In this document: piece by piece, positions 647-27,299 of the stretch
Position numbering within the stretch: the first letter of the stretch is position 1
Layout of the letters: each line of letters opens with the position of its first letter
Origin: a virus
Direction: 5' to 3' (one strand)
Length of the DNA stretch: 37,313 nt
Virus record (IMG/VR): IMGVR_UViG_3300028549_002563
Translations under genes and position numbers: made by a program
Notes under the pieces: generated by a model
What the model was told of the DNA's origin: nothing
The model's input: only the letters and a program-made list of their open reading frames with translations
Databases searched by the model: none

Positions 647-1621
647 CTACAACCCAAATTCTTTTTCCAACTCTCTTAAAGTAAAAAATCTTCCATCATC
701 ATTAATAAAATCTGTTATTTTATATTTTCCACTTTTATATAATTCAAATCTTTTCGGTCCCATTAATTTTTCAGCAGTCAAAGGATTACGTTTTAAAAAA
801 CTGTCAAATGATGTATTAGTTTTAACTTGTTGTCCTCCTTCATCTCCTGTTGCCTGTCTTGAATAATTTAAAGTATCTTCACTAACTCTTATTAATAAAC
901 TTCTACAATTAAAATGTCGAGGCGGTTTATCTGGAATATCAGAGCGTTTATCATATTTATCAGCAGAATAAAATTCTTTATCTAATTTAATACAAATAGG
1001 AGTTGTTCTGCTATCTAATGTTGCCAATGAAATCCACCCTTTCATATCTTTATATTTCTTTTCTGTTTCGTTTCTAATATTTTCTCTTACTGTTTTTGCA
1101 TAAGTTCTTACATTTGTTAAAACTTGTTTTTTAGTTAATTTAACTTGTAAATTGTATAATTGATTAGAAAATGATTTAGGATTTTTACCCTGTAAAAGAT
1201 TATCACTTAAAATAGTTTTAACTCTTTTTAAAGTTTGTTTATTTGCTGTTTGAAATAATTCTGAAAAATCATAACCGAAAATATTATCGTTTTCAGGATT
1301 AAATAAACCGTCTAATAGTTTCTTATCAAAATTTGTATTTAACATTTTACTTTCAGATGCTATAAAAGTAGCAGATATAACTTCCAGTTCTTTAATACTT
1401 TCTTCTTCAACAGTTAAAAAAGCTTCTGTTTGAACTTCTTCAATATATTTTAAAAGTTCATTTAATTTTTTCTTTGAATAATTAGTTGTATCTTCTGAAT
1501 ATAATTTAAAAAGAACTTTTTCATTTAAAGATTTTAAAGTTTCTTCAAATTGTTCTATTGAAATGTATTTATATTTTTCAAAAAAAATCTCTTGTTTTAT
1601 TTGTTCATCTATTTCTGTCAT
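647..1621 (-). CDS. Head morphogenesis / minor capsid protein, SPP1 gp7 - Mu F family
   Basis: Motif LDSRTTPICIKLD...PPRHFNCRS matches the remembered D.RT.P.H..L.G...PP.H.NCRC signature. Lies immediately downstream of the portal gene. Confidence 0.8.
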   Translation of the reverse strand: MTEIDEQIKQEIFFEKYKYISIEQFEETLKSLNEKVLFKLYSEDTTNYSKKKLNELLKYIEEVQTEAFLTVEEESIKELEVISATFIASESKMLNTNFDKKLLDGLFNPENDNIFGYDFSELFQTANKQTLKRVKTILSDNLLQGKNPKSFSNQLYNLQVKLTKKQVLTNVRTYAKTVRENIRNETEKKYKDMKGWISLATLDSRTTPICIKLDKEFYSADKYDKRSDIPDKPPRHFNCRSLLIRVSEDTLNYSRQATGDEGGQQVKTNTSFDSFLKRNPLTAEKLMGPKRFELYKSGKYKITDFINDDGRFFTLRELEKEFGL

Positions 1622-1646
1622 TTAAAATCTCCTCCTTTAAAAAATA

Positions 1647-3017
1647 TTATATTAATCTTGCTTGTTCTTCTTCTATTTTTTGTTTTTCTAAATCATAATC
1701 AGAAATATTTAAAACTTCTCCTTTTATTAATTCATCCCAGAAAGTATCTAATGAAATAAGGCCTGCATTTTTCATTGATATTAATTTATCTATTGTTGTG
1801 CTATCTAATGCTAAACTTTCAAAATCTTTATTTAATGTTAATGTTATATCTAAAACAGTATCTAAAAAATTACCCATAATTAAAAATGCTGTATTAAAAG
1901 CATCTTCTAAACTTGTAGCTAACTCTATTAAGAAAAGATTATTATTGCTATCTGCTATCTTTGCTTCTGTTGCTGTATTAAAACTTAAATTAGTTAAAAA
2001 ACTTAATGACATCTTATCTAATTTATCTTCTGTGTCTGATAAATTTTCTTTAATTTTATCAATAGAAGAACCTGTTATTTCTTTCCATTCAAATCCTTCT
2101 GATGTTTTATCTGAAAAACTTAAAGCTTTATTAATACCGATAGAAATTCCTTCTTTCTTTAATGTTTTCTTATCAAATTCATTTTGTGTATAAAGAACAG
2201 GAACAGGTAAAGCTGATAATTCAATTATATTATCATAAGAGCTTTGTGTATTAAAGTGTTTAATATTCATATACGCTAAATCTAAAAAAGGTATATCTGC
2301 TTCTAAAAATCCTGTTTTTGAAGAATAAACTGGAATAATCGGTATATAGTTTAGAGTATTAGTCCAGCTATCAATTATTTCAAATTCATTCTTTGTTTTT
2401 GCTTTCTTTTTAAGAATATAACCTTTTCCAATTTGCATAACAACATAAATATTATCTTCTTTTGTTGTAAAATCATCAACTTCAACTAATATAGATTGTT
2501 TAATTGTTATTTGTGTTAATTTTGCTATTCCGCTTTCATAACTTATTTTTTTATTAATAACATCTGAACGTTTAATATTCTTTAAAAACGGCTGAAAAGA
2601 ATTCTTATTTAAAACTGATACCGCTTCTTCTACTTTTTGATTATCTACCCAGATATACGATATTCCATCTATTAAAGAATTTTTAGATACTTCTTTAATA
2701 AATGAATTTAAACTTGACCCTTTTCCATCAATATTCTTAATGAAGTTTTCATTTTTAACTTTATAATCTATTTTTGGCTCTTTTCTTAATATTAAAGAAG
2801 CTAAATTATTAATACTTTTCTGAAAATGATTATATAAAGTAGAATATTTTAATCTGTTTAAATAAATAAAATCTTCTTCTAAATAGAATTGTTTTAAATA
2901 AGTTCTACCTTTCTTTTTTACTTCTCTTGTTCCTTTGTATAAATCATTTACAAATTCTAAATAGTTTTGATTATCTTTGTAATCATCATCTAAAAAATCT
3001 ACATTTTTGAAATTCAT
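1647..3017 (-). CDS. Portal protein
   Basis: 456 aa, located between terL and the MuF-like gene (canonical order). No motif independently recognised. Confidence 0.7.
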   Translation of the reverse strand: MNFKNVDFLDDDYKDNQNYLEFVNDLYKGTREVKKKGRTYLKQFYLEEDFIYLNRLKYSTLYNHFQKSINNLASLILRKEPKIDYKVKNENFIKNIDGKGSSLNSFIKEVSKNSLIDGISYIWVDNQKVEEAVSVLNKNSFQPFLKNIKRSDVINKKISYESGIAKLTQITIKQSILVEVDDFTTKEDNIYVVMQIGKGYILKKKAKTKNEFEIIDSWTNTLNYIPIIPVYSSKTGFLEADIPFLDLAYMNIKHFNTQSSYDNIIELSALPVPVLYTQNEFDKKTLKKEGISIGINKALSFSDKTSEGFEWKEITGSSIDKIKENLSDTEDKLDKMSLSFLTNLSFNTATEAKIADSNNNLFLIELATSLEDAFNTAFLIMGNFLDTVLDITLTLNKDFESLALDSTTIDKLISMKNAGLISLDTFWDELIKGEVLNISDYDLEKQKIEEEQARLI

Positions 3018-3079
3018 TTTTTTACCTCTTGATAAATTTTTGTTATTATAACATTTTAACGCTTTTAAAAGAAAACTTA

Positions 3080-4381
3080 TTATTCAATAAATAATTGTCT
3101 TCTGACTGGATATAATTTATTCACTAAATAACCCAATGCATCTATAATATGATCGTGTCCTGATTTCTTGTCTGGCTGTCCTGTTTTTTCATCATAAGTC
3201 TGTTGTTCTAAATTTTCTGTTAAAGTTTTACATTTATTAGTGTTAATAAATAATCTTCTTATTCCTTTACCGTTTCTAAATAAAGAATTAACAGATAAAA
3301 CCCTATCTTTTATAAGTGGATTAGATTTATCGCTTAAAACATTGAAACCTGCACTTTTTAATAATTGAATATCAGAAGAAGAAGCATTAACACTCTTTCT
3401 TTGATGTCCTGCTGCGTCTGTGCATAAATATAATTCAAAACCGTTATAATTCTCTTTTAAGATCTCGATCATTGATGGAGTATCAAATATCTCTTTTAAT
3501 TCTTCTACTATATATAACTCGTTGTCTTCTTCATTATGTATTGCTACAACTGCTGCCATGTGTTCAACGTTGAAGTCCATTCCTACATAAAGTTTTCTTT
3601 CTTGATCTTTATCTTTAAAAAACTTTTCTATTGTTAAAGAAGTATTACATTCATTTCTTTTAAAATTAACATAAACATTTGAAGCATTAAGATTAACAAA
3701 TTCTCCCTCTAAATAAGCTAGAATTAAATTCTCTGGATATTGTTCTAATAAATCATCTACATAAGTGGAAGGCAAAAATACATTGTTTTTAGTTTTACCT
3801 TTAATTATTTTAAATTTATCTTTATCTTTTGCTTTTGCCCATTTTTCATAAACAAATTTAAACCCTTCTGGCGTTGTTGTTATAAATCCTGTATTTAATG
3901 CATTGAAAGGTTTTAATAAACGATTTCTTGCTGTAATCTTTTCAAATACCGATTTTGCCTTATCTTTTTTTAAAGTATCTAATTCATCAATCCAGAAATC
4001 GGCGTGTTCATAACCGATTATTTTGTCATCGTTATCTAAACTTCTAAAAATTATTTTAGCATTAAACTTTGGAATTATCAAAATCTTATCAGTTTTATTT
4101 AAGCTGTAATCAATTTTTAAATTAGTTAATATAGTTTCAAATCTTGGAAATAAAATAACTTTAATTAAATCGTATGTCGGTTCATATATTCCAAAAACAT
4201 ATTCACCCATATTATTTTCTCTGAAAAGGTTTCCAAAAGTTTTAATATAGTGTAGTGTTCTATATATTCCGCTTTCTGTTTTTCCTGCTCCATAACCTGC
4301 AACTAATGCAGGATATTGTGCTGTGCAATGTAAAAGCTCTAATTGATGTTCTAATAATTTTATTTTTGCTTTTACTTTCAT
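3080..4381 (-). CDS. terL: Terminase large subunit
   Basis: Walker A-like VAGYGAGKTESG and Walker B-like DFWIDELD. The C-terminal half has acidic nuclease-type residues (GMDFN, DAAG, HIIDALGY). Position is after terS. Confidence 0.85.
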   Translation of the reverse strand: MKVKAKIKLLEHQLELLHCTAQYPALVAGYGAGKTESGIYRTLHYIKTFGNLFRENNMGEYVFGIYEPTYDLIKVILFPRFETILTNLKIDYSLNKTDKILIIPKFNAKIIFRSLDNDDKIIGYEHADFWIDELDTLKKDKAKSVFEKITARNRLLKPFNALNTGFITTTPEGFKFVYEKWAKAKDKDKFKIIKGKTKNNVFLPSTYVDDLLEQYPENLILAYLEGEFVNLNASNVYVNFKRNECNTSLTIEKFFKDKDQERKLYVGMDFNVEHMAAVVAIHNEEDNELYIVEELKEIFDTPSMIEILKENYNGFELYLCTDAAGHQRKSVNASSSDIQLLKSAGFNVLSDKSNPLIKDRVLSVNSLFRNGKGIRRLFINTNKCKTLTENLEQQTYDEKTGQPDKKSGHDHIIDALGYLVNKLYPVRRQLFIE

Positions 4382-4482
4382 AATTCCTCGTTGTTATTGT
4401 TTAAATGTTTGTATATTTATAAGTTTTTCAACTTCTCAATATACAAAATAAAATGTAGTGTTTTTTATTTTGTTTTACTAAT

Positions 4483-4947
4483 CTATTTTACTTCTTCAAA
4501 TTCAAAATCAACAACTTCTATTTTATTATCTGTTTCTATTCTTTCTATATATCCTCTGCTTTTACCTATTGTTTTTAAATAAAACATAATAGCTAATTGA
4601 TTTCCTTTTAATATATTTTTTTGTAATTGACTTTCAACTACGTCTATTTGTGATTCTTTTACTTCTCTTACCGCTTCTGCGAAGTATTGATTATTATCTA
4701 CCCAGTTATAAAATGTTTGTCTTGATTTACCGCCTGCACTTCTTAAAGCGTGTGCTATATTTGCTAAATTACTTTCATAAAAAGCTAAAAATATTATTTG
4801 TTCTAATTTAATTTTTTCTTGTTCGTATAAATAATAAAAAGAACATTCTTCTATTAGTTTTTTTACTTTATCAGAAGGTTCTAATTTTGTTTTTTCTTTT
4901 TTTATTACTTCTTTTTTAATAACTTGTGATTTAGCTTTCTTTTCCAT
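4483..4947 (-). CDS. terS: Terminase small subunit (HTH type)
   Basis: SRQTFYNWVDNNQYFAEAV resembles the terS HTH plus conserved helix. Lies directly upstream of terL. Start moved from 4959 to the ATG at 4947, which follows GAGGT. Confidence 0.7.
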   Translation of the reverse strand: MEKKAKSQVIKKEVIKKEKTKLEPSDKVKKLIEECSFYYLYEQEKIKLEQIIFLAFYESNLANIAHALRSAGGKSRQTFYNWVDNNQYFAEAVREVKESQIDVVESQLQKNILKGNQLAIMFYLKTIGKSRGYIERIETDNKIEVVDFEFEEVK

Positions 4948-5341
4948 TGAATACCTCATTTAATAATCTTTCAGTATAATACAACACTTTTACTAATTCT
5001 TTTTCAAGTTTTACCTTTTTTAATCTATCAAGTTTATCAATTATTTCTATATTCTCATAACAATATAATAAAGATGTATGACATCCTCTTATGTCAAATT
5101 TAGTTATATTTCTAAACTCTTCTATTTCTGTTTTAAAACTATCAAGAACTTTAATAAAGAAAAGTCTATATTTTTCAATATTCTTTTTAGTTTCTAAATC
5201 TTGTTGTATTTTTGCTTTTGCTACATTTTTATTAAATTTTTGATGTAGTGTATAAACGTGAAGAGATAAACTATCTATATCATATTCATAAACTTCTAAA
5301 CATTCATCAAATAAATCGTCTATTGATATTTTATCTGACAT
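4931..5341 (-). CDS. Hypothetical protein
   Basis: ORF track only; co-directional and tightly packed with its neighbours. Confidence 0.6.
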   Translation of the reverse strand: MSDKISIDDLFDECLEVYEYDIDSLSLHVYTLHQKFNKNVAKAKIQQDLETKKNIEKYRLFFIKVLDSFKTEIEEFRNITKFDIRGCHTSLLYCYENIEIIDKLDRLKKVKLEKELVKVLYYTERLLNEVFNGKES

Positions 5342-5343
5342 CG

Positions 5344-5712
5344 TTATTTTACCTCTTTATTTGTTGAATTGTTATCTTTATTAAAAGCATCTATAATAGT
5401 TTTTAATATTAATCTATCTGTTTCATATTCCTTATTTCTTAAATACAAATTAAAAACATAATTTTTAATATTAAACTCATCTTCTACTTTCAATGGATAA
5501 TTTATTGATGGAACTTCTATATTATTCTTTTTAGTTAATAACTCATCATTAACTATTAACTTTTGCTTTACATAAACTGTTTTAGTTTCTATTACAGGCT
5601 TTGTAGAAGCACAACCTGTAAAAAGGATAAGAAGTATCAAGTAAGAAAATAAAAGCGTTTGAAGTGCTTTAAATTGATTTATAAAGGTTATTCTTTTATT
5701 ACTTGTTTTCAT
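5344..5712 (-). CDS. Outer-membrane lipoprotein, o-spanin candidate
   Basis: Signal peptide ending in the lipobox LFTGC (LILLILFTGCAST). Directly follows, and overlaps by 14 nt, a TM plus coiled-coil ORF. Confidence 0.7.
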   Translation of the reverse strand: MKTSNKRITFINQFKALQTLLFSYLILLILFTGCASTKPVIETKTVYVKQKLIVNDELLTKKNNIEVPSINYPLKVEDEFNIKNYVFNLYLRNKEYETDRLILKTIIDAFNKDNNSTNKEVK

Positions 5713-6106
5713 TATCTACATCTCCTTTTAAAACTTCAAAAAAATCTTTTAAATTAGTAGTTTTTTCTACTTTTTTAGTTAATTCAATTGCTTTCTCTTT
5801 TTCAATAATTTTATATTGATATACTATTTTTTGATTATTCTTTGCTTGAATTAATTCTTGCTCATAATAAGTTGTCATTCCAGAAAGTGCTGATTTAAAT
5901 TCTCTTTCTTGATTAGTTAAGTTTTGTTCCATTAATATAATCTTCTTTTCATTTTCTTTAATAGTTTCTGCTTTATTTTTGTTTGAATAATAAAGATAAC
6001 TAAAAGAGCTTATAATAACTCCTACAATAGATAAAATTATTATTAACTTATAAACATTAAAAGCAGGAAATGTAAAAGGGAAAATACTTTTAAATAATTT
6101 TTTCAT
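5699..6106 (-). CDS. Inner-membrane i-spanin candidate
   Basis: N-terminal TM segment (LIIILSIVGVIISSFSYLYY) followed by a charged coiled-coil-like region. Paired with the downstream lipoprotein. Confidence 0.65.
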   Translation of the reverse strand: MKKLFKSIFPFTFPAFNVYKLIIILSIVGVIISSFSYLYYSNKNKAETIKENEKKIILMEQNLTNQEREFKSALSGMTTYYEQELIQAKNNQKIVYQYKIIEKEKAIELTKKVEKTTNLKDFFEVLKGDVDNENK

Positions 6107-6132: not shown

Positions 6133-6161
6133 ATTTTATTTATTTTTCTATTAAAAGTCAA
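6133..6161 (-). promoter_or_regulatory. Sigma70-type promoter TTGACT-N17-TAAAAT for the spanin-packaging operon
   Basis: Plus strand shows ATTTTA at 6133-6138 and AGTCAA at 6156-6161, with a spacer of exactly 17. Lies 27 nt upstream of the start at 6106. Confidence 0.65.
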
Positions 6162-6538
6162 TTTTATTTAACAAATAACGCTAAATTAATAAAAAAATAA
6201 CGCTAACTACTATAAAAATAACGCTACTTCAATTTGGCGTTATTGGCTTAAACGCCTATATTACGGGCTTTTAACATAAAAATAACGCTAATAACGCTAA
6301 TAACGAACTTTTTCAGGTTGCACCGTGAAAAATTATATAACATCTCTTTTAAATAGTATAAATATTTCTCACGATGAAAGTTGGATTATTAGCGTTATTG
6401 CGTTATTTTTATATAAATTTAATATAATAATAGTATAATAAACCCTATAAACAGGGCTTTACTAGGTCTTTTTAAAAATAACGCTAACTTTTATTTGGCG
6501 TTATTCTAGCGTTATTTTTGGCGTTTAGCGTTATTTTT
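6150..6538. repeat. R1: ~389-bp long direct repeat (partner at 32659-33047) packed with ATAACGC/GCGTTAT words
   Basis: Manual alignment at a constant offset of 26,509 with no indels. About 9 mismatches over the ~370-bp core 6167-6538. Forward ATAACGC at 6175, 6197, 6218, 6282, 6291 and 6478, with variant ATAACGA at 6300. Reverse GCGTTAT at 6237, 6392, 6400, 6498, 6509 and 6528, with variant GCGTTTA at 6521. Confidence 0.9.
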
Positions 6539-6683: not shown

Positions 6684-6992
6684 ATGGAAATCGATTATTA
6701 TCAGTTATCAAAAAGATTAAATACACTTTTCTTATTTGAAGAAATTACAGGTTATTTAAAGGATGCTTTTAAAATATGTTTATTAAACTATGATAAAACA
6801 ATAGAATTCAAAAGTGAAGCACATCTTGAAAAGTTAGCTTCAATAACAATTAATTCTTTTGTTGAAAGAAGAGTTAATTTAAAAAGTAAATTTACAGCAA
6901 TAGAAAGTATTAAGAAAAATAAAGAAGAAGTTTTTGATTTTTTGCAATATGATTTATGGGAAAAATCTATTAATTTAAAAAAATATAGATAA
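6684..6992 (+). CDS. Hypothetical early protein
   Basis: ORF track; SD GGAGG 9 nt upstream of the ATG. Confidence 0.8.
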   Translation: MEIDYYQLSKRLNTLFLFEEITGYLKDAFKICLLNYDKTIEFKSEAHLEKLASITINSFVERRVNLKSKFTAIESIKKNKEEVFDFLQYDLWEKSINLKKYR

Positions 6993-6999
6993 ATTTAAT

Positions 7000-7045
7000 T
7001 TCTTATTTCCATTTTGGAAGATAAGAAAGAAAAATAATATACAAT
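7000..7045 (+). promoter_or_regulatory. 13-mer TTCTTATTTCCAT within a hairpin, followed by -10-like TAATAT/TACAAT
   Basis: 13-mer at 7000-7012. It pairs with GGAAGATAAGAA (7016-7027) as a terminator-like hairpin after the 6684 ORF. -10-like hexamers lie at 7035-7045. Confidence 0.45.
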
Positions 7046-7073
7046 TACAATTAATTACTTGGAGGTAATAAAA

Positions 7074-7469
7074 ATGCAAAAACTTAACACAATCTTAAAT
7101 TTAAGTAAAGGACTTGAAAACTCTACTGAAAAACAACAATTAGAAAGCTTTAAATGTAAATTCTTTTGTCAATTTGATTTACAAATTTTGGCTATGTCTA
7201 AATTTAGTTCTATAAGAAAATTAGTTGCATCTAATGCTAAAACACATAAAGATACTTTAAAATATCTTATTTTAAATGATACAGATATAAATGTAATCAT
7301 TGAAGCTATTAATAACATAAATGTCGATTTAACAAAAGAAGAATTAAAAGAAATTTCTAATTATTTTTATCAAGAAAAAGATATTAATACTTTTTTAATT
7401 GTTAATCAAGAACTAAAAAATAGAAATAAAAAAGCTTTATTTAATAAAGTTATAAGTTTCATAAAATAA
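7074..7469 (+). CDS. Hypothetical early protein (short LRV/HEAT-like repeat pattern)
   Basis: ORF track 7059-7469. The ATG at 7074 follows GGAGG. The SSIRKLVASNAKTHKDTLKYLILNDTDINVI pattern resembles leucine-rich-repeat-variant units (weak). Confidence 0.75.
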   Translation: MQKLNTILNLSKGLENSTEKQQLESFKCKFFCQFDLQILAMSKFSSIRKLVASNAKTHKDTLKYLILNDTDINVIIEAINNINVDLTKEELKEISNYFYQEKDINTFLIVNQELKNRNKKALFNKVISFIK

Positions 7470-7489
7470 ATAAAAAGGAGAATAAAAAA

Positions 7490-7819
7490 ATGAAAAAAAT
7501 GTATGATGTAAAAATGAAAGGAACGTTGGCTTATTTATATAAAGAAATCTTTAAAAGTGATTTACTTTTTTATAAAAATTTAATTGGAATGGAAACAGAA
7601 AGAAAATCAGTTAAAGAAAGTGATAATAATACTTATTGCTTTAAAATTGTTGATATTAAAAAAGTTTCTGGGAAATATAAAGCTGTTATTAAACAAAATT
7701 ATAAAGATTATATTTGTTATTTAGAAAATGGAGATACTGAAAGCAATATTATCCATAAAATATATGATATAAATATTGATGAAGCATTAAAATTCTTTAA
7801 TGTTGAAAGAATAAGTTAA
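7490..7819 (+). CDS. Hypothetical early protein
   Basis: ORF track; SD AAGGAGA upstream. Confidence 0.8.
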   Translation: MKKMYDVKMKGTLAYLYKEIFKSDLLFYKNLIGMETERKSVKESDNNTYCFKIVDIKKVSGKYKAVIKQNYKDYICYLENGDTESNIIHKIYDINIDEALKFFNVERIS

Positions 7820-7829
7820 ATTCTTTACA

Positions 7830-7875
7830 TTCTTATTTCCATAATAAGAATGTTTTCTAAAATCTGTTGTAATAT
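7830..7875 (+). promoter_or_regulatory. 13-mer TTCTTATTTCCAT in a perfect hairpin, followed by TGTTGTAATATT
   Basis: 13-mer at 7830-7842. CATTCTTATT (7828-7837) pairs with AATAAGAATG (7843-7852). TGTTGTAATATT at 7865-7876 is identical to the box at 8811-8822. Confidence 0.5.
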
Positions 7876-7942
7876 TTTAAAAGTTTTAATTTAGTCGTTT
7901 AAAACTTCTTAAATAATATAATAAAGACTAGGAGATAAAAAA

Positions 7943-8743
7943 ATGCCATACACATATATATCAAGTTTATTTCAACATTTCGATGAAATCAATGAAATTA
8001 CAACTAAAACAACAACAATAAAAGTTTTTGAAGATAGATTTTTTCTTTTACAAGAAAATAACTTTGAAGAATGTTTTTTAAATTTAGATGAATTACAATC
8101 TAATATTATGTATATTACATATATATTAGATGATAAAAAACAAATAAATAAAATATTTTTAAATAATGTTTTTATTGATAGATTTAATATTATAAGACCC
8201 ACTGTTTTTAACTATTTAAAAGTTGTTTCAGATCATAAAATAGTTTTTATAGATTTCTTTAATTTAAACAAAACTGAATTAAGAAAAATTATTAAAAACA
8301 TTTCTTCTTATTCAATAGATAAAATATTAAAAATTCAAAATACAAATACATTTATGTATTATTTTATTGAAGAAATAGTTAAGCTTCAATTTGAATATTA
8401 TGAATTAGATTATAAGTTTTATTCAAAATTTAAAAAACAAATGAAGAATAATATAAATGAAATGTTATATTTTTCTTTTAAAAATGATTATAACAGTGAT
8501 GAAGAAATAAGATTAAACAAAATGTTAATATCTGATATTGTTGAATTTGTTAATGAATATTCAAGAATTTTCTCTATATCTAAAAAAGGTTTAATAAATA
8601 AAGAAATAATTGAAGATATAAAAAAAGATGAATTAGATTATGTTGAATTTCTAGGAATGAATTTAGATTTTGAAATAGTTATAGTTAGAACTGTTTTAAA
8701 ATTAAATAATATTTTATTTGAAAAGAATAATATACCTTTTTAA
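7943..8743 (+). CDS. Hypothetical early protein, 266 aa
   Basis: ORF track; SD GGAGA upstream. No recognisable motif. Confidence 0.8.
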   Translation: MPYTYISSLFQHFDEINEITTKTTTIKVFEDRFFLLQENNFEECFLNLDELQSNIMYITYILDDKKQINKIFLNNVFIDRFNIIRPTVFNYLKVVSDHKIVFIDFFNLNKTELRKIIKNISSYSIDKILKIQNTNTFMYYFIEEIVKLQFEYYELDYKFYSKFKKQMKNNINEMLYFSFKNDYNSDEEIRLNKMLISDIVEFVNEYSRIFSISKKGLINKEIIEDIKKDELDYVEFLGMNLDFEIVIVRTVLKLNNILFEKNNIPF

Positions 8744-8774
8744 ATAAAAAATAAGGAAAAAGAAATTTTTTTAT

Positions 8775-8820
8775 TTCTTATTTCCATAATTAACATTTCT
8801 TTTTAAGAATGTTGTAATAT
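8775..8820 (+). promoter_or_regulatory. Candidate early promoter: 13-mer, TTAACA-N17-TGTAAT
   Basis: 13-mer at 8775-8787. TTAACA at 8790-8795, spacer 17, TGTAAT at 8813-8818, preceded by TGt (extended -10 style). Confidence 0.55.
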
Positions 8821-8871
8821 TCTCTTAAATATTGATACAAAACTTTTTAGAAAGTTTTATATCAGTATTTG

Positions 8872-8880
8872 AAGTCGTCG
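8872..8880 (+). promoter_or_regulatory. AAGTCGTCG word (copy A) in the leader of the primase-helicase gene
   Basis: Read directly. Starts 44 nt upstream of the ATG at 8916. The next 12 nt (CTTTAATACTAG) are near-identical to copy B. Confidence 0.5.
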
Positions 8881-8915
8881 CTTTAATACTAGAAAAAAAT
8901 ACGGAGATAAATAAA

Positions 8916-10583
8916 ATGGAAAAAAATGCACAAAAACAATCAAGAATAGCTTCTACATTATTAGCTAACAAGGTTGAAAATGAAATTAAAAAAACAATAG
9001 GTGTAGAAAACGATATTATGTTTGATAGTATTGATGTTGCTGATGAAAACCCTTCTTTAATGTCTATGGCTGAATTAGCTGAAATAGCTGAGGAATTAAA
9101 AAGTGTAAAAAGTATTACAGAAATAAGAGGTTCATTAACTTCTCCAAATGAAGATTTTAAACCTACTTATGATGAATTAATTAAAACTGGAAGAATTGGA
9201 GAAAGTCTTTATATGTATTTTGATTATAACAGAGAAAAATATATATTGTTAGATAAAGAAAGCGGAGATAGAAAAGTTTTAAATACTGCTTCTGCAGGTC
9301 ATAAATTATTTGAAGTTTTTGTTAAATACGGTATAGAATTAAAAAATCCACAATCTGATTTAAAATATGTTAAAAAAGTTATAGTTGATTTTGATTTAAA
9401 AAGACCTGAATTCTGGACTACAAGTATGGGAGATTTCTTAAATGAATTTCAAGAACAAAAAACAAAATTAGGTGTTATTTCTGATTTAAGAAAAGAAGAA
9501 ACAGAAAGATATAAAAATTTAGCTTTTTTAAAAAATAACTGTAAAGCTATTTATTCTTTACTTTATAATTTACATGAGAATAATGATGATGCGGTAAAAC
9601 ACTTCATTAATTATTTAAGCACATTTGTAAATGAAAGAGAAAAAATACCTACTGCTTTTATGTATGCAGGTATTGAAGGTGCAGGTAAAGGTATATTAGT
9701 GTCAGTTGTTTTGTCTTATATCCTTGGAGATGAATATACAACAAGTCAAATGGCATCATCTCTTAAAAAAGATTTCAACGGTTCATTAGAAAATAAATTA
9801 TTAGTTAATTTTAATGAAGTTTCATCTGATTTTTCAAAAACAGATTCTGCTACACAAAATTTAAAAAGTTTAATAACTGATAATACATTTTCGTTAAATG
9901 TTAAAAATCAAAAAGAATTTGACGCTAAAAATAATTTTATTGTTATATTAAGTCAAAATATTAAAACAGGCGTTAAAATATCTTTAACAGATAGAAGATT
10001 TAATTATTTCGTTCAAGAAAGAACATTAAAAGATGTTGCTGAAAAAGATTTTAAAAAATCTATTAAAGTATTCATTGAAGAAGATATTAAATCTGAATTA
10101 GATAACTTTGTAAGATTTATTGCTTTATTTGATTATGATAAATATATAGCACAAGATTTATTCGAAACAGAAAGTAAAAGAAGAGCACAGGTTGCTACAA
10201 GTTCATCATTTGATGTTTTAATTAAACAATTAAAAGAAAGAGATTTAATGGCTATTGTAAGTGATGTAGAAGATATAGTTAATGCTTATAATGAAAGTGA
10301 TGATAAAAAGAAATATACAGATAACTATTATTCTTGTATTAGACTTTATAAATCAGCTTTAAAAGATTTAGAAGATGAATTAGAAAAAGATTGTATTAGC
10401 AATAAAACTTTAACTTGTATTTATAGTATTTTAGTAGAAGATGCTTCAACTAAAACAGATAGATTACTTAATAAAATATTTGAAAGTCATTTTGGAAAAT
10501 CAATTGTTAAAACTATTAATGGAGAAACAAAAAGAGTTAGAAGTTTAAAATCTTCTTTTGATGAAAAAGAAGTATGTTTTTAA
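8916..10583 (+). CDS. SF3 helicase / D5-P4-family primase-helicase-like replication protein
   Basis: Walker A GIEGAGKGIL and Walker B-like LLVNFNEV, in a size and context typical of the phage/plasmid primase P4-family C-terminal domain. Start moved from 8832 (non-ATG) to the ATG at 8916, which follows GGAGA. Confidence 0.7.
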   Translation: MEKNAQKQSRIASTLLANKVENEIKKTIGVENDIMFDSIDVADENPSLMSMAELAEIAEELKSVKSITEIRGSLTSPNEDFKPTYDELIKTGRIGESLYMYFDYNREKYILLDKESGDRKVLNTASAGHKLFEVFVKYGIELKNPQSDLKYVKKVIVDFDLKRPEFWTTSMGDFLNEFQEQKTKLGVISDLRKEETERYKNLAFLKNNCKAIYSLLYNLHENNDDAVKHFINYLSTFVNEREKIPTAFMYAGIEGAGKGILVSVVLSYILGDEYTTSQMASSLKKDFNGSLENKLLVNFNEVSSDFSKTDSATQNLKSLITDNTFSLNVKNQKEFDAKNNFIVILSQNIKTGVKISLTDRRFNYFVQERTLKDVAEKDFKKSIKVFIEEDIKSELDNFVRFIALFDYDKYIAQDLFETESKRRAQVATSSSFDVLIKQLKERDLMAIVSDVEDIVNAYNESDDKKKYTDNYYSCIRLYKSALKDLEDELEKDCISNKTLTCIYSILVEDASTKTDRLLNKIFESHFGKSIVKTINGETKRVRSLKSSFDEKEVCF

Positions 10584-10645
10584 ATTAAATGTTATATATT
10601 TCTATAAAAAGTATATATAACATTAAAAATAAGAAGTTTTTTAAT

Positions 10646-10689
10646 TTCTTATTTCCATTTTTAACATATTTTTTTAAATATGATATAAA
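10646..10689 (+). promoter_or_regulatory. Candidate early promoter: 13-mer, TTAACA-N17-TATAAA with TG extension
   Basis: 13-mer at 10646-10658, whose upstream complement AATAAGAA forms a hairpin. TTAACA at 10661-10666, spacer 17, TGaTATAAA at 10681-10689. Confidence 0.6.
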
Positions 10690-10725
10690 CTTATAAAAAT
10701 AAATCGCATAGGGAGGAGAAAAACT

Positions 10726-11124
10726 ATGAAAAACTTATTAACTGTAAATAAAGAACTTGTTTTGCTTGAAAAAGCATTGTTATCTAATGTTATGTTTTTA
10801 GATGAAAATAATAAAGGAGGTTATTTCTATTATTTTAAAAAAAATATAAATACCTTTAATTTAGTATTTGATGTTTTAAATGCTAGAAAAGATGGATATT
10901 CTTTATTATCTTATAATGAAACATCTAATGAAATGATTATTATCGTCAATGGAGTATCAAAAGAACTTAAAATAACTGATTTTTTTGAATACTTTGTTTA
11001 TCCATCAATATCAATTAAAGAAGCTGATGAATTAAGAAGACATTTTATTAATATACAAATATCTTATGAAGATTTAATTAATAGAATGCGTTCTAAATAT
11101 CAAAAAGAATATGATGTTATATAA
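10726..11124 (+). CDS. Hypothetical early protein
   Basis: ORF track; SD GGGAGGAG upstream. Confidence 0.8.
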   Translation: MKNLLTVNKELVLLEKALLSNVMFLDENNKGGYFYYFKKNINTFNLVFDVLNARKDGYSLLSYNETSNEMIIIVNGVSKELKITDFFEYFVYPSISIKEADELRRHFINIQISYEDLINRMRSKYQKEYDVI

Positions 11125-11153
11125 GGGCTATAAATGCCCTTTAAGGCTTAAAT

Positions 11154-11173
11154 AAATACTTCAAGGAGTATTT
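11154..11173 (+). terminator. Hairpin AAATACT-tcaagg-AGTATTT followed by a T-rich run
   Basis: 7-bp stem read directly, 30 nt after the stop of the 10726 ORF. Confidence 0.4.
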
Positions 11174-11186
11174 GTTTAAGTTTTAA

Positions 11187-11195
11187 AAGTCGTCG
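11187..11195 (+). promoter_or_regulatory. AAGTCGTCG word (copy B) upstream of the small ORF plus tnpB
   Basis: Read directly. AAGTCGTCGCTTTAAAACTA differs from copy A (AAGTCGTCGCTTTAATACTA) at 1 position in 20. Confidence 0.5.
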
Positions 11196-11236
11196 CTTTA
11201 AAACTACTTAAAATAACAAAGACGGGAGATAACAAA

Positions 11237-11380
11237 ATGAAAAATGCGAACTTGAATACTGTTGCTTTAACAAAAGCTTTAAATAACCTAAACTCTCTAC
11301 TAGAAGATATATTTTTATCTAACTTAAATAAAGATACAGAATTGGCGTATAAAGCGTTTAAATGTATCAAAAACGCTTAA
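11237..11380 (+). CDS. Small hypothetical protein, 47 aa (MKNANLNTVALTKALNNLNSLLEDIFLSNLNKDTELAYKAFKCIKNA)
   Basis: Hand-translated and below the ORF-track cutoff. SD GGGAGA lies 7 nt upstream. Ends 19 nt before the tnpB-like start. Confidence 0.55.
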   Translation: MKNANLNTVALTKALNNLNSLLEDIFLSNLNKDTELAYKAFKCIKNA

Positions 11381-11399
11381 TTAATAAAAGGTGATAGAT

Positions 11400-12776
11400 A
11401 TGTATTACTTTAAACAAAACCTTAAAGAAAAGGATTTAAAAGATAAAAAGGAGATATTATCTCCTCTTTTTGAAACTGCTAGAAAATTTTATAATGAATT
11501 AGTTTATAATGCTAAAAATAAAGAAGATAAATTTACTTATTCTTTAAATGATAAAACTATTTCAAATTCAATACACGCTAAGAAACTAGGAAGTTTTTTA
11601 GTTAAAACTATTACTTATAACTTCAATATCAACACTTCAAATTATTTAAAAAATCAATCAAAAGATGCTTCTTATTCAAAACCCAGTTTTAGAAATAAAG
11701 ATAGTGAATTTTTTATTAGTTTTTATGGAAATAATATAAGTGTTAAAAATGATTATATTAATTTAAAATTAAATACTAAAACTATAAGTTTTAAAATTCC
11801 TAAAAATTTCTTTTTAAAACATAAAGAAATAAAACAATTAAGATTACACATATCTAAATACGGTTATTATTTAGTTTATCATTATGAAAACGCAATAAAC
11901 ACATCTAATACGCTTAAATATAAAGCAGGTATAGATTTAGGCGTTGATACATTAATAGCGTGTTATTCAGAAGATATAGCTCCGTTAATTATTTCTGGAA
12001 AATATATTAAATATTTAAATTATAAGTTTTCTTTAAAAATAGAAAATGCTTCTAATGAAGAAGATGTTTTAAGAATAAAAAAAGAACGTGATTTTAAAAT
12101 AAAAGCATCTATAACATTTGCTGTTAAGAGATTATTTGATTATTTAAACTATGCTAATGTAAAAGAAATTTATCTTGGAGATTTTAACGGTATAAAAGAA
12201 AAAGTTGTAGCTAGAAACTTTTATTTTATACCGCATCATTTTTTAAGAAGAAAAATTAAAGATTACTGTCAAAAGTTTAATATTAAATTTAATCTTCAAG
12301 AAGAAAGTTATACATCTAAAACTTCTTTTTATGATTTAGAAAAACCTGTTAAACAAAATTTTTCAGGAGAACGTATAGAACGTGGATTATTTAGAACAAA
12401 AGATGGATTATTGATACATGCAGATATTAACGGTTCAGCTCAAATATTATCTAAAAAACATTTAGTTATTAATAGAGATAATATATTGTTAAAACCTTTT
12501 TTTATTGATTTAGTTAAAGAAGAAATAAAAGTTAAAAGTAAAATCAAGTGTTTTTTTAGTAAAGAATATAAAAAAGAAAAAACAATAGAAGAAAAATTTA
12601 AACAACATAAGAAAGACCCTTTAAATTTTTATTTTGAAAAATATGCTTCTTTTAATGCTTATAATAACGCAGGAACTAAAATGTTTTATTTTTATGATAA
12701 AAAAGATAAAACTATAAAATCTAACATAAAAAACAATGAACAACTTGTAAATAAGTTTTTCAATAAACTTATTTGA
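11400..12776 (+). CDS. tnpB: TnpB-like RuvC-fold protein (IS200/IS605 accessory / IS1341-like clade), stand-alone
   Basis: RuvC-I is AGIDLGVDTL (Asp at nt 11934-11936). GDFNGIK stands where the canonical EDL glutamate would be. An alternative Glu lies in QEESYTSK. RuvC-III is HADINGSAQIL. The GERIERGLF segment replaces the CxxC zinc-finger pairs. ATG at 11400 follows AAGGTGA; the track start at 11391 is GTG. Confidence 0.8.
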   Translation: MYYFKQNLKEKDLKDKKEILSPLFETARKFYNELVYNAKNKEDKFTYSLNDKTISNSIHAKKLGSFLVKTITYNFNINTSNYLKNQSKDASYSKPSFRNKDSEFFISFYGNNISVKNDYINLKLNTKTISFKIPKNFFLKHKEIKQLRLHISKYGYYLVYHYENAINTSNTLKYKAGIDLGVDTLIACYSEDIAPLIISGKYIKYLNYKFSLKIENASNEEDVLRIKKERDFKIKASITFAVKRLFDYLNYANVKEIYLGDFNGIKEKVVARNFYFIPHHFLRRKIKDYCQKFNIKFNLQEESYTSKTSFYDLEKPVKQNFSGERIERGLFRTKDGLLIHADINGSAQILSKKHLVINRDNILLKPFFIDLVKEEIKVKSKIKCFFSKEYKKEKTIEEKFKQHKKDPLNFYFEKYASFNAYNNAGTKMFYFYDKKDKTIKSNIKNNEQLVNKFFNKLI

Positions 12777-12827: not shown

Positions 12828-12899
12828 TATTATTTTAACTGTAAACGATTAATAATATCGGTTTAGAGTGGCTCTCTTAAAAATGCCTTCCAACTTCAC

Positions 12900-12918
12900 G
12901 CCCTTTTAATTTAAGGGC
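12900..12918. terminator. GC-rich hairpin GCCCTT-ttaattt-AAGGGC between convergent genes
   Basis: 6-bp stem. Lies between the tnpB 3' region and the stop of the minus-strand ORF at 12924. Confidence 0.4.
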
Positions 12919-12923
12919 TCTTC

Positions 12924-13298
12924 TTATTGCTTTACTGTATCAAATATTAACTTTATAATACCTGCTAAAATAGATGCTAATAATATAAAATTTGTTTGTC
13001 TTAAACTTGTTCTTACAATATCCAATTCTTTTTCAACTGACTCTAATTTAACTTGATTTGCATGTTGTTCTAAACTACAAGAATTTAAAGCATCTAATTG
13101 ATTTTCAACTACTCTAAATTTCTCTGTATGTGTTATTTGTGTTTCTAATATTCTTGAAATAGATTTTAATTCTGATTTAACTTCACTTAAATCATTTTTA
13201 AGATAATTAAGATGTTCTGACATTTTATCAGAAGATCTATTTATTTCATTAACTGTTGTTTTTAACTTTTCTATTGCTTCTGCTGTTATGTTTTCCAT
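12924..13298 (-). CDS. Coiled-coil protein with C-terminal membrane anchor (XhlA-like?)
   Basis: Heptad-like charged N-terminal 100 aa, then FILLASILAGIIKLIF. Last gene of the late operon. The family call is tentative. Confidence 0.6.
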   Translation of the reverse strand: MENITAEAIEKLKTTVNEINRSSDKMSEHLNYLKNDLSEVKSELKSISRILETQITHTEKFRVVENQLDALNSCSLEQHANQVKLESVEKELDIVRTSLRQTNFILLASILAGIIKLIFDTVKQ

Positions 13299-13375
13299 TT
13301 TAAATTCACCTTTATAATTTTTGTTATTTTAATTTAAAAAAATGAATTTTAAAAATGTAAATTTTACTTTATTTA

Positions 13376-14017
13376 TTATGCAGGATCTTCAATATTAATT
13401 AATTCTAAATCATAAAGTGAATTATTTACTAAAACTTTTGAAGTATTTTTTAAAGTTATCTCAATTCTATCTGTAAAAACATCAACTCGATGAGGAGTTG
13501 CTTTATCAAGAGGTTTTTTACCTATTGCATTAATATTAAATTGATATAAACTCAAATCTTGTGTTGTATAAATTATAATTTTTGAATCAGTAGCATTAAC
13601 ACTAGAAAAATGACTTGATTTAAATTTTATTCCATTTTCAACAGTATATTTTAAAAATGCTCTTGCATAACTTGACTCTTCATTTGTATAATTATTACTT
13701 ATTTCTAATAAATACTGACTTTCATAAAAAGTTAAATCAAAAGCACCTGGAGGTGATATTGAATAATGTTTTATAAAATAATTTGTTGTTGTTATATTAA
13801 AATATGTTTCACGAGGAATACTTCCAAAATATTCACCTGAAGCTCCTATTTGATATGTATTTTTAACATAATGAAATATAACTCCACCTCTTCTTGTGTT
13901 GCTTATAAAATTAAACTGTGCTGTAAAAGCATTGTCATCTGTATAACTTAAAAGATTTTTACTTAAAACAATTGCTTGATTTTTTCTAAACATTCTATAA
14001 AATATTTTATAATTCAT
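13376..14017 (-). CDS. Hypothetical tail-fibre-module protein
   Basis: ORF track; position distal to the adhesin gene. Confidence 0.6.
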   Translation of the reverse strand: MNYKIFYRMFRKNQAIVLSKNLLSYTDDNAFTAQFNFISNTRRGGVIFHYVKNTYQIGASGEYFGSIPRETYFNITTTNYFIKHYSISPPGAFDLTFYESQYLLEISNNYTNEESSYARAFLKYTVENGIKFKSSHFSSVNATDSKIIIYTTQDLSLYQFNINAIGKKPLDKATPHRVDVFTDRIEITLKNTSKVLVNNSLYDLELINIEDPA

Positions 14018-14030
14018 TTTCTACCTCTTT

Positions 14031-15275
14031 TTATTGAACTTCAACATATTCAAAAAATAATATATTTGCTACTTTTTCTGATGAACCTGAATATAAATAC
14101 ATTAATTTAGTTTTATCTTCTGAATAAGATATTCCATTTATATTATAAGATGTTGTTGTATAATAATAAGTATCTATCATTAGTATATAATCTTCCCAAG
14201 TTTTCCCGTTAGTTAAAGTTAATTCCATTTCATAAGTAGATGTATTTTTAAAAAAAGAGATAAAATTAGTTCCTGCGAAAACACTTGTTGAAGCTGTATA
14301 TTGAATAATAGCTAAAACTAAATCAAGTTTATATGTTTTCTCTTGTATTGATAAACTTACAGTTCCTATACTTTCTCTATTTAAACTATCAACTATTTTA
14401 TATGTAAAACTATCATTTCCAATAAAATCTGTTTCAGGATTAAAAGAAAAAGTTCCATCTAAATTTAGATTTAATTCTCCTGTTAAAGTATTATCTACTA
14501 AATAAAAATTAGAAGGAGTTTCTCCTATTTCGCAATAATTATTTAAATCATCTTCCTTTAATTCATTTTTATTAACCTTTAAATTAAAAGAAACAGCATC
14601 TATTATATTTGCAATTATCAAATTCACATTACCTATATCTTCATTATTTAAACTATCAGTTATTTTATATGTAAAACTACCCTGTCCTGTAAAGTCAAAA
14701 TTAGGAACGTATTCAAAAAATCCATCGCTATAAATATTTAAATCTCCATTCGATAAATCATCTACTAAACTAAAAACAGATGGCTGAACTCCTAATGCTG
14801 AATTTGAATATAAATCTGATGCAAAAAATCCATTTTTATCAACAATAAATTCATAATCAGATGCCAAAACGTTTCCTATAATATTAAAACTTACTGTTCC
14901 TACGTCTTGTTTTAATTGACTATCTGTTATGCTATATTCAAAACTATCAGTTCCGAAATAATCAATAGTAGGTGTATAAGTAAATGTTCCATCTGTATTT
15001 AAAATTAATAATCCATGCGAAACATCTGATATTAAATTAAAAACTGACGGCTCATTTCCTAATATTGAATTAACCTTTAAATCTCCTTCTTTAATTGAAT
15101 TTGAATTTAAATTAACAATATAATCAGCAGCTACTACATCAATAGAAGGTATAGGAGTTTCAGAAGATGATGTTGTAAATTTAATTATTTTATTTTTTAA
15201 GCGTGCTAATTTTTCTTTAAAAGTTAAACCGCCCTGTAAAACAATTAAATCTTTGTTTTCGAATTCATATCTCAT
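14031..15275 (-). CDS. Adhesin / tail fibre with three tandem cadherin-like (Ig-like) repeats
   Basis: Three ~88-aa repeats share G.L.(I/L)N.DG.F.Y.P..D(Y/F).G.DSF.Y.I.DS......G.V.L.I. This is the remembered signature of bacterial cadherin-like / tandem Ig repeats. Confidence 0.7.
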   Translation of the reverse strand: MRYEFENKDLIVLQGGLTFKEKLARLKNKIIKFTTSSSETPIPSIDVVAADYIVNLNSNSIKEGDLKVNSILGNEPSVFNLISDVSHGLLILNTDGTFTYTPTIDYFGTDSFEYSITDSQLKQDVGTVSFNIIGNVLASDYEFIVDKNGFFASDLYSNSALGVQPSVFSLVDDLSNGDLNIYSDGFFEYVPNFDFTGQGSFTYKITDSLNNEDIGNVNLIIANIIDAVSFNLKVNKNELKEDDLNNYCEIGETPSNFYLVDNTLTGELNLNLDGTFSFNPETDFIGNDSFTYKIVDSLNRESIGTVSLSIQEKTYKLDLVLAIIQYTASTSVFAGTNFISFFKNTSTYEMELTLTNGKTWEDYILMIDTYYYTTTSYNINGISYSEDKTKLMYLYSGSSEKVANILFFEYVEVQ

Positions 15276-15646
15276 TTTTTAAACCTCTTTAAGCATTTTG
15301 GAATATCTGTAATTATAACATTTCTTAAATTCTTTCTAAATTCTATAACTTCATTTAATTCATCAGAAGATAAATTTAAAGGATTATCTAATAACATAAT
15401 AAAATCTGTCATTTTTAAATAATCTAAACATTTAACTTTATTACGTTCATATTCTCTTTTATCACTATCTTCTTTATCTAATATAACTTCTCCATTAATA
15501 TAACGATATGTTAAATTAGGATTAATATCTACTTCTGTTAAAATATATCCTTCTTCTTTTTTAGCTTCATAAAAATCATTTAAATCTATTCCAGGAGCTA
15601 ATTTAACTAAAAGAACCTTATTGTCTTCTAACTTTGCTAAATTCAT
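15272..15646 (-). CDS. Hypothetical protein (possible fibre assembly factor)
   Basis: ORF track; 4-nt overlap with the downstream adhesin gene. Confidence 0.55.
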   Translation of the reverse strand: MNLAKLEDNKVLLVKLAPGIDLNDFYEAKKEEGYILTEVDINPNLTYRYINGEVILDKEDSDKREYERNKVKCLDYLKMTDFIMLLDNPLNLSSDELNEVIEFRKNLRNVIITDIPKCLKRFKK

Positions 15647-15699
15647 TTTAAACCCTCTTTTTGATTGTTATATTAGCAAATATAACAATTAATTTCAAG

Positions 15700-16320
15700 T
15701 TAATGTAAAACGTCAGATGTTGAATAAAATATAGCTGATATATATAAATCATTTGTGTCAGTAGAAAAATCTAATATAGAAGTTTGATCTATATTAGTAG
15801 TTTTAACTTTAATTCTTGTATAAGTTGAAACACTATTAACTTCTAACGAATAATTATAATCATAAATACTTTCAACAATTCCAGGAACGCAAATAACAGG
15901 AAGTCCAGGATTAGTTATAAAATTAATAGTAAAATCCATATTCCCATTGTCTACGATAGAAGCAATGTTATAACTTTTTAAAATAGTTCCATCTGTTTTA
16001 AATAAAATATAAGCTTTTATTTTAGAACTATTTTGCGTATAAGGAAGTTTAAATATAAGCCAGTTATCTCTGTAAATTATTGGAGATTTGTTTATATTAT
16101 CTTTAACAGCAATATATATTATATTTCCTAAACTTACTATATCTCCAACCTTATAATCTCCTGCCATAACCCATTTTTTTGCAGGTGTTTGCGTTCCTTC
16201 TGCCAATATTCCAAGAACTGATTTTATTCCATTTACTTTTTGTTCTTTTGTATATCTTAAAAGTAGTGTTAATAAATCAACGTTTTCACATACGCTTTTA
16301 TCACAAGTATATTCTGTCAT
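15700..16320 (-). CDS. Receptor-binding / tail-fibre paralog 3 with CBM5/12-like motif
   Basis: KKWVMAGDYKVGDIVSLGNIIYIAVKDNINKSPIIYRDNWLIF aligns with equivalent segments of the two upstream ORFs. Confidence 0.6.
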   Translation of the reverse strand: MTEYTCDKSVCENVDLLTLLLRYTKEQKVNGIKSVLGILAEGTQTPAKKWVMAGDYKVGDIVSLGNIIYIAVKDNINKSPIIYRDNWLIFKLPYTQNSSKIKAYILFKTDGTILKSYNIASIVDNGNMDFTINFITNPGLPVICVPGIVESIYDYNYSLEVNSVSTYTRIKVKTTNIDQTSILDFSTDTNDLYISAIFYSTSDVLH

Positions 16321-16330
16321 TTTTTACCTC

Positions 16331-16984: not shown

Positions 16985-16988
16985 TTTA

Positions 16989-17636: not shown

Positions 17637-17694
17637 TTAATTAAAACCTCGTTTTTTATTTTAAATTATAACTAATTAAGTTAAAAAAAGTAAA

Positions 17695-18039: not shown

Positions 18040-18041
18040 TT

Positions 18042-18593: not shown

Positions 18594-18608
18594 TTAATTA
18601 ACCTCTTA

Positions 18609-20747: not shown

Positions 20748-20749
20748 TT

Positions 20750-21645: not shown

Positions 21646-21703
21646 TTTATAACCTCTTTATTTTATAATTTTAACATCTTTTAAGATAACATTCAATAAA
21701 ATA

Positions 21704-24625: not shown

Positions 24626-24655
24626 ATTAAGACCTCTTAATTTTTTATAATTTTA

Positions 24656-25359: not shown

Positions 25360-25388
25360 TTTTTCCCTCTTTTATTTTTATATTTGTA

Positions 25389-27287: not shown

Positions 27288-27299
27288 TTATTTATCCTC

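Follow-up and report, generated by a model that had tools for sequence, protein, structure and literature searches.

In the pathogenicity islands of Staphylococcus aureus (SaPIs), the Rep proteins are initiators of helicase superfamily 3 (SF3) that load themselves and bind iterons through a C-terminal winged helix (PMC9371898). The iterons are penta- or hexanucleotides, 6–12 in number, that flank an AT-rich centre, two or more per side standing in opposing directions (PMC9371898). Origins of Gram-negative phage-inducible chromosomal islands (PICIs) have the same layout (PMC6092414), and in both groups the iteron sequence is lineage-specific (PMC9371898, PMC6092414). The alpha protein of phage P4 is also an SF3 helicase with a C-terminal winged helix (PMC2777425). 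The present analysis concerns the IMG/VR virus record IMGVR_UViG_3300028549_002563, a stretch of 37,313 nucleotides here called the window, and two arrays of the 7-bp word ATAACGC within it, R1 and R2. On balance, these arrays are judged most likely to be iteron-type replication origins, or one origin with its cis-acting partner, of the SaPI, PICI and P4 kind, and the words are probably bound by the phage's own SF3 helicase.

R1 resembles SaPI and PICI origins in carrying short iterons (5–8 bp in those origins) in number (12 exact and 3 variant 7-bp words), in the way the forward words at 6282, 6291 and 6300 face the reverse words at 6392 and 6400 across an AT-rich core, and in belonging to a phage that encodes its own SF3 helicase, the model of which resembles the SaPI proteins PriRep1 and PriRep5.

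In P4, octamer iterons reportedly stand in both orientations at two separated loci, ori and crr, both needed in cis. An earlier reading of R1 made from the letters alone, the sequence-only reading, had drawn this analogy, and it is apt: short iterons in both orientations occupy two separated loci in the window, and two arrays are also present in a relative, L055. The P4 word, TGTTCACC, is different from the window word. P4 also differs in that ori and crr are structurally unlike each other while R1 and R2 are near-identical, and in the DnaG-type primase domain of alpha, a domain not detected in the window helicase. Phage SPP1, with a genome of about 40 kb, has two separated initiator-binding repeat regions by AT-rich DNA, oriL and oriR. 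It differs in using the G38P origin-binding protein, a helicase loader and a DnaB-type helicase, and it has neither an SF3 helicase nor a dyad of 7-bp words.

Word arrays and duplex stability

With both strands counted, the window contains ATAACGC 30 times, where 1.84 ± 1.5 would be expected, and a count of 30 was not attained in any of 100 shuffles. Twelve exact words lie within R1 and twelve within R2. The parts of R1 are as follows, forward words being on the plus strand and reverse words on the minus strand.

6150–6538, no strand: R1, the whole iteron array and candidate origin 1, with the leftward packaging operon on one side and the rightward early/replication operon on the other
6175–6256, no strand: left outer word cluster, with forward words at 6175, 6197 and 6218 (spacing 21–22 bp), a reverse word at 6237 and the variant TAAACGC at 6250
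6282–6306, plus strand: inner forward triplet ATAACGCTAATAACGCTAATAACGA of 9-bp period (6282, 6291 and variant 6300), aimed at the core and invariant in R1, R2 and the array of the sister phage L047
6307–6391, no strand: core, an AT-rich centre between the arms of an imperfect 13-bp inverted repeat (CACCGTGAAAAAT at 6321–6333, ATTTCTCACGATG at 6364–6376)
6392–6406, minus strand: inner reverse word pair (6392, 6400), aimed at the core, opposing the forward triplet and invariant
6407–6442, no strand: AT tract TTTTTATATAAATTTAATATAATAATAGTATAATAAA, a candidate DNA-unwinding element, with 2 of 36 columns variable
6440–6460, plus strand: G+C hairpin motif AAACCCTATAAACAGGGCTTT, a CCCT/AGGG stem with a bulged C
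6478–6534, no strand: right outer word cluster, with a forward word at 6478, reverse words at 6498, 6509 and 6528 and a variant at 6521

The coordinates and polarities that the sequence-only reading gave for the exact words of R1 matched the sequence exactly, its variants ATAACGA (6300) and GCGTTTA (6521) are both present, and its triplet of 9-bp period was confirmed. The variant at 6250 is additional, which brings R1 to 12 exact and 3 variant words per 389 bp. The extended word consensus is AAAATAACGCTAA.

The second array is a direct copy of the first and lies elsewhere in the genome.

32659–33047, no strand: R2, about 97% identical to R1, with an identical set of 12 exact words
32916–32951, no strand: R2 counterpart of the AT tract

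R1 stands at the head of the early/replication module; R2 is flanked by the leftward scaffold/capsid/tail operon on one side and by two small plus-strand open reading frames (ORFs) on the other. The copies show 9 mismatches across about 370 bp (about 6167 to 6537), and a 164-bp stretch is identical between them (6276–6438 = 32785–32947). Independent assemblies (L044, L045 and L046) break at the arrays, and in strain L046 an R2-type right edge is joined to the R1 right flank. Together, this junction, the 164-bp identity and the assembly breaks suggest exchange or gene conversion between the copies.

When R1, R2 and the L047 array are aligned, none of the 84 word columns varies, compared with 52 of 286 columns elsewhere (Fisher p about 1e-6); the words are under purifying selection. 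Variation is highest at the centre of the core, where 13 of 38 columns differ. The sequence-only reading had described R1 as arranged around a back-to-back promoter-like core. The two outward -10-like strings it named (TATAAT at 6337–6332 on the minus strand, TATAAAT at 6357–6363 on the plus strand) and the near-identical CACGGTG/CACGATG are present, but such a promoter core is not a defining feature of the arrays. Besides being poorly conserved, the core is completely different between the two array copies of L055, and its boxes were missed by a generic sigma-70 scan, which returned 6 promoter-like sites against 7.9 in shuffles. The divergent-promoter setting is not kept in relatives either, since copy B of L055 lies between co-directional RuvC and head-completion genes and the L057 array between co-directional MuF and scaffold genes.

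Duplex stability was calculated from nearest-neighbour energies in 30-bp windows. The least stable such window genome-wide starts at 6410, in the AT tract of R1, and the second least stable at 32912, in that of R2; in L047 and L054 the locus-wide minimum likewise lies inside the array. Matches to the DnaA box TTATCCACA with at most one mismatch number 11 in the window against 8.75 expected, and none falls in R1 or R2.

A hairpin-like motif is also seen in the left arm of R1 (6250–6272), oriented as at 6440–6460. The sequence CCCTATAAACAGGGCTTT, or minimally its ...GGGCTT half, is present in every related array irrespective of the word, and a CCCT...AGGG inverted repeat also occurs in phage NrS-1. 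Scans with Rfam (at the gathering threshold and also at E ≤ 1) and for tRNAs gave nothing relevant, and the only IMG/VR matches to ATAACGCNNATAACGCNNATAACG were repeats coding for Asn-Asn-Ala in unrelated viruses.

The candidate initiator and related arrays

The protein that might read the words is encoded within the early operon.

8916–10583, plus strand: SF3 helicase (DUF5906) of NrS-1/SaPI-Rep/P4/D5 type, the proposed iteron-binding, self-loading initiator

Searched as a profile against the Protein Data Bank (PDB), it matches the NrS-1 helicase domain with an E value of 8e-44. Its AlphaFold model (pLDDT 79) finds the NrS-1 CTR as best Foldseek match (TM 0.75), followed by SaPI PriRep1 and PriRep5 (entries 7PDS and 7OLA) and then by poxvirus D5/E5 and African swine fever virus (ASFV) D5-type helicases. 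The model shows three tiers, as in NrS-1/SaPI/D5-type enzymes: residues 1–78 are disordered, an N-terminal domain spans 85–180, the ATPase about 200–405, and a helical C-terminal domain of winged-helix-like topology about 409–543, in which residues 493–543 form a strand-helix-helix-beta-hairpin. Residues about 420–500 of this last domain are the least conserved part of the structured protein. The sequence-only reading had called the enzyme a P4/D5-type primase-helicase; the SF3 assignment to the NrS-1/P4/D5 type stands, but no primase domain was detected in it by Pfam, PHROGs, NCBIfam or PDB profile, and no separate primase gene was found. In most of the family (relatives P0002–P0009) the C-terminus, 10530–10583 in the window, is an acidic tail with F as its last residue (EKEVCF, EEIPF and DELDNF are examples), resembling the partner-recruiting C-terminal tips of SSB and of T7 gp4/gp2.5.

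A helicase search (E ≤ 1e-5) yielded 17 metagenomic relatives, 25–96% identical, whose contigs were compared. The conserved gene order runs from the packaging operon through the array, early genes, helicase and TnpB-like gene to the tail genes, and the R1 position holds in each relative a similarly built array with its own word: ATAACGC in the window and L047, ATAACAC/G in L054, CTTACAC in L048 (= L055), GGTTACA in L061 and ATTACAC in L063. The L057 array, which is placed elsewhere, also has ATAACAC/G. Aligned, these words have a common core, T[TA]AC[AG]C, and lineage-specific flanks. An architecture that is kept while the word changes by lineage around a common core argues for a phage-encoded, slowly co-evolving DNA binder. 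The claim of the sequence-only reading that R1 is a protein-binding super-site is thus supported both by purifying selection on the words and by their co-variation with lineage. Apart from structural proteins, conservation across the relatives is limited to the helicase, the TnpB-like protein, the small terminase subunit (TerS) and a 136-aa protein. An early protein family of about 100 aa (6684–6992 in the window) is weakly conserved and present in most relatives, and no DNA-binding fold or family was detected in it.

The 33.8-kb contig L048/L055 carries two arrays 10 kb apart, with near-identical word clusters and different cores. Because both arrays lie on one unambiguous contig, the two-copy state is real and conserved rather than an assembly artefact, the duplication being shared across the family.

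Arrays of the same word family are also found in cultured phages. All 11 genomic GTTACAC words of NrS-1 (AB746912.1) fall in 17062–17377; their consensus, GGTTACACTTT, fits the core T[TA]AC[AG]C. They stand in both orientations around AT tracts, immediately 3' of the primase-polymerase/helicase gene and inside the annotated hypothetical ORF NRS1_29. This array is likely an origin; no description of it was found in the searchable literature, and it offers no unambiguous match to the 8-nt NrS-1 priming sequence (PMC7102993). NrS-1 is thus like the window phage in its word family, homologous helicase, words around AT tracts and CCCT...AGGG inverted repeat. It differs in having a single array that abuts the helicase gene, a prim-pol domain in the enzyme, and a temperate lifestyle with an integrase. 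The only proteins common to NrS-1 and the window are the portal, helicase, tape measure and scaffold, and the two TerS proteins have no detectable similarity. Since the word core and a homologous helicase go together with an unrelated TerS, the word family travels with the helicase and not with TerS. In Moraxella phage Mcat5 (KR093629.1), an array of CCCTGCACA words at about 5288–5570 is placed immediately 3' of the homologous helicase gene, with the terminase genes downstream of it; a triplet of 9-bp period and an AT tract are part of this array. Around the more distant helicases of Aeromonas phiA008 and Pseudomonas CRPAP1904, no clear array was found within ±5 kb.

A mechanism of initiation can be proposed on this basis. 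The helicase would recognise 7–10-bp words (AAAATAACGCTAA; core T[TA]AC[AG]C), with the C-terminal winged-helix-like domain as the most likely reader. Helicase molecules would assemble on the word clusters, which border the AT tracts and are oriented towards one another from the two sides of the core, and the duplex would open at AT-rich DNA, at 6325–6362 and/or 6407–6442. Hexamers could then load and unwind in both directions. As neither a primase nor DnaA boxes were found, priming would rely on the host primase or on a transcript.

The origin reading and its rivals

The sequence-only reading had left four options for R1: an origin, a centromere-like element, a pac site or a master operator. 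The helicase-bound origin is now best supported, owing to the NrS-1/SaPI-like helicase, the published SaPI origin layout, the duplex instability of the arrays and the arrays of NrS-1 and Mcat5; the other three are weakened. Of its interpretation as a whole, the protein-binding super-site, the helicase-bound origin and the P4 analogy are supported, and the promoter core and the primase are not.

Several points weigh against the origin reading or set the arrays apart from the known kind. The arrays are detached from the helicase gene (R1 lies 2.4 kb upstream of it; R2 22 kb downstream, or about 13 kb upstream round the circular genome), unlike those of SaPIs, NrS-1 and Mcat5, which abut that gene on its 3' side. 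R1 is larger, with about 15 words over 390 bp against 6–12 iterons, and it is duplicated as a direct repeat of about 97% identity, which origin function does not in itself require. An outward sigma-70-like late promoter abuts every array, a conserved small CCCT/AGGG(C)TTT hairpin is carried as well, and the window is a complete tailed phage, not a satellite. In L055, L057, L061 and L063, the best window of the array ranks only in the top 1–3% of unstable windows. The winged-helix assignment, made from the model, lacks statistical significance: alone, the C-terminal domain finds NrS-1 at a Foldseek E value of 0.02 and assorted winged-helix proteins at E > 1. Domain-wise identity was compared with the word for the helicase, TerS, the 136-aa protein and TnpB, over three word types only, and no helicase segment was closer in the near-identical-word phage than in the different-word phage. 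GC skew in the window mirrors gene strand only and is uninformative as an origin indicator. The identity of the binder, melting, origin firing and the role of the two copies are all inferred here. Finally, terS operons are found downstream of both R1 and the NrS-1 array, so a role in regulation or packaging could exist alongside; the same may be said of each role weighed below, any of which could accompany origin function.

Two promoters, the one at R1 picked up by the generic sigma-70 scan, bear directly on the question of regulation.

6133–6161, minus strand: sigma-70-like promoter at the R1 left edge (TTGACT-17-TAAAAT), with its -35 box inside the repeat, reading into the packaging operon (gene start 6106)
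32642–32670, minus strand: sigma-70-like promoter at the R2 left edge (TTGACT-17-TATTAT), reading into the scaffold gene (start 32608)

Both array copies of L055 have TTGACT-17-TATAAT and the L057 array TTGACA-17-TATCAT, so that each array comes with a TTGAC(T/A)-17-TAnnnT promoter aimed at late genes. An operator or enhancer role is an unlikely alternative: a phage regulator, whether repressor or activator, would coat the words and control the left-edge late promoters (6161–6133, 32670–32642), timing packaging and head/tail expression, possibly with looping between R1 and R2. The outer words at 6175, 6197 and 6218, spaced by 21–22 bp just upstream of the -35 box, would suit such a regulator, and the weakly conserved early family typified by the 6684–6992 product could supply a fast-evolving one. 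However, late promoters of type TTGACT-17-TAnnnT occur at 6161, 25417, 28902, 31829 and 32670 (minus strand) and 33336 (plus strand), and those at 31829, 28902 and 25417 have no array. No regulator with a DNA-binding fold was identified, and the operator role leaves unexplained both the genome-wide stability minimum in the arrays and the same word family beside the NrS-1 helicase gene. Packaging is a quite improbable explanation, in which TerS (4483–4959) binds the two word clusters, terminase cuts between them and headful series start from either copy. It draws on the place of R1 at the head of the terS/terL operon, on the NrS-1 array about 80 bp upstream of terS, on the fact that in the window, in L055 and in L057 the packaging module is bracketed by the two arrays, and on a large terminase subunit (TerL) about 39% identical to the terminases of Jersey-like phages, which are headful packagers. 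R1 also resembles the pac sites of SPP1 and P1, where two clusters of short words surround a central site. Yet the word family is common to NrS-1, whose TerS is unrelated though the helicases are homologous; two sites per genome are unnecessary, and the second lies far from terS in a variable position; and pac sites do not feature an AT-rich melting tract.

A central region surrounded by many short repeats, at two loci per genome, might also recall centromere-like or genome-organising sites of the parC (plasmid R1) or parS (P1) type that position or pair phage or plasmid-prophage DNA. This is highly improbable: among the proteins scanned, no ParA, ParM or ParB-like gene and no par family was found, and genes for an integrase, a repressor or plasmid maintenance were likewise not detected; Walker A motifs are convincing only in TerL and the helicase, a third match (25461–26834 product) looking like chance; and no relative turned up in about 185,000 reference genomes. 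Just as faint is the prospect of an RNA element, with divergent core transcripts carrying GCGUUAU words and the CCCU/AGGG hairpin and serving as protein-sponge small RNAs, as antitermination (nut/put-like) sites or as primer RNAs. The dyad does give most words the same sense in both outward transcripts, and the small hairpin is conserved across the family and resembles the lambda boxB hairpin in form. Against this, conservation is lowest at the putative core promoters, which the promoter scan also missed, word orientation in the outer clusters differs among relatives, and neither an Rfam match nor a terminator-like site was found.

Under the origin reading, the two copies could be two origins, an origin with a crr-like partner, or a means of coupling to the adjacent late promoters. 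That the near-identical arrays work as a coupled pair and not as redundant origins is decidedly unlikely, and two versions of it may be imagined. In one, helicase loading or melting at an array might directly switch on its edge promoter; if true, late transcription would be coupled to replication with no dedicated late activator involved. In the other, recombination between the direct repeats might reversibly split the genome into circles of about 26.5 kb and about 10.6 kb with one origin each, the larger then holding the replication, head and tail genes and the smaller the packaging and lysis genes. Recombinant isomers are possible because the 164-bp identity prevents short reads from phasing the left and right flanks.

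With this analysis, a family of uncultured and very AT-rich phages gains a probable origin and a probable initiator; judged by the helicase, the cultured phage closest to the family is a deep-sea-vent Campylobacterota phage. The analysis also indicates a candidate and apparently undescribed origin beside the much-studied NrS-1 polymerase-helicase gene. The family provides a natural series of cognate word/helicase pairs (ATAACGC, ATAACAC, CTTACAC, GGTTACA, ATTACAC and GGTTACACTTT), usable to dissect iteron reading by SF3 self-loading helicases. The conserved duplication and the built-in late promoter raise the question of whether origin firing and late transcription are coupled.

Genome context and minor observations

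The window genome is that of a tailed phage of about 37.1 kb with 22% G+C, in which GC skew tracks gene strand. Its modules are as follows.

647–6106, minus strand: MuF-like, portal, TerL, TerS, conserved 136-aa protein and two spanin-like membrane proteins
4483–4959: TerS, within the leftward packaging operon
6684–12776, plus strand: small early genes, SF3 helicase and TnpB-like gene
12924–32608, minus strand: tail, head-completion, RuvC, capsid and scaffold genes
following these: lysis/methylase block

Cultured-phage DNA searches, near and distant, gave no match to the window. IMG/VR held no relatives of the helicase, and its capsid relatives are only about 30% identical and lack arrays. Profile scans with TerL and the helicase across the reference genomes found no prophage or relative. 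The ends carry an exact 221-bp overlap (1–221 = 37093–37313), which points to an assembly that is circular or permuted, or else to a short terminal repeat in direct orientation. Downstream of an Eco57I-type methyltransferase gene, a (GA)n tract at 35212–35337 (minus strand) codes for RERERE... within a 41-aa ORF that lies between two paralogous genes (34751–35215 and 35331–35825).

Most early plus-strand genes are preceded by a -10-like box that has the motif TTCTTATTTCCAT about 25 bp upstream. The plus-strand sites of this motif are at 143, 6614, 7000, 7830, 8775 and 10646, and the one at 37235 is the 143 site repeated in the terminal overlap. It is a second promoter class or a regulator site, distinct from the TTGACT-17-TAnnnT late promoters.

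The TnpB-like gene (11400–12776, plus strand; NCBIfam guided_TnpB, 2e-22) lies just downstream of the helicase gene in every relative, adjacent or 1–3 small ORFs away. Its product has an apparently intact RuvC D/E/D and lacks the usual zinc-finger cysteines. TnpA is absent, and the gene has the look of a domesticated phage gene, not of an insertion sequence. Targeting of the words by this protein or by the neighbouring small RNA was considered and rejected: neither the conserved nor the variable parts of the RNA contain a word, and a 16-nt guide would require longer words and less varied flanks. That RNA is a conserved non-coding element of about 85 nt just 3' of the TnpB-like gene (12836–12928, plus strand), also found in L047 (14001–14093), L048 (13506–13612), L054 (12750–12845) and L051 (4212–4305). 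It has no Rfam match. It has its own TATAAT-like box, three hairpins and a terminal hairpin with a T run after it, and compensatory changes are seen in 7 of 17 predicted pairs. The element is thus a candidate small RNA and possibly a partner of the TnpB-like protein.

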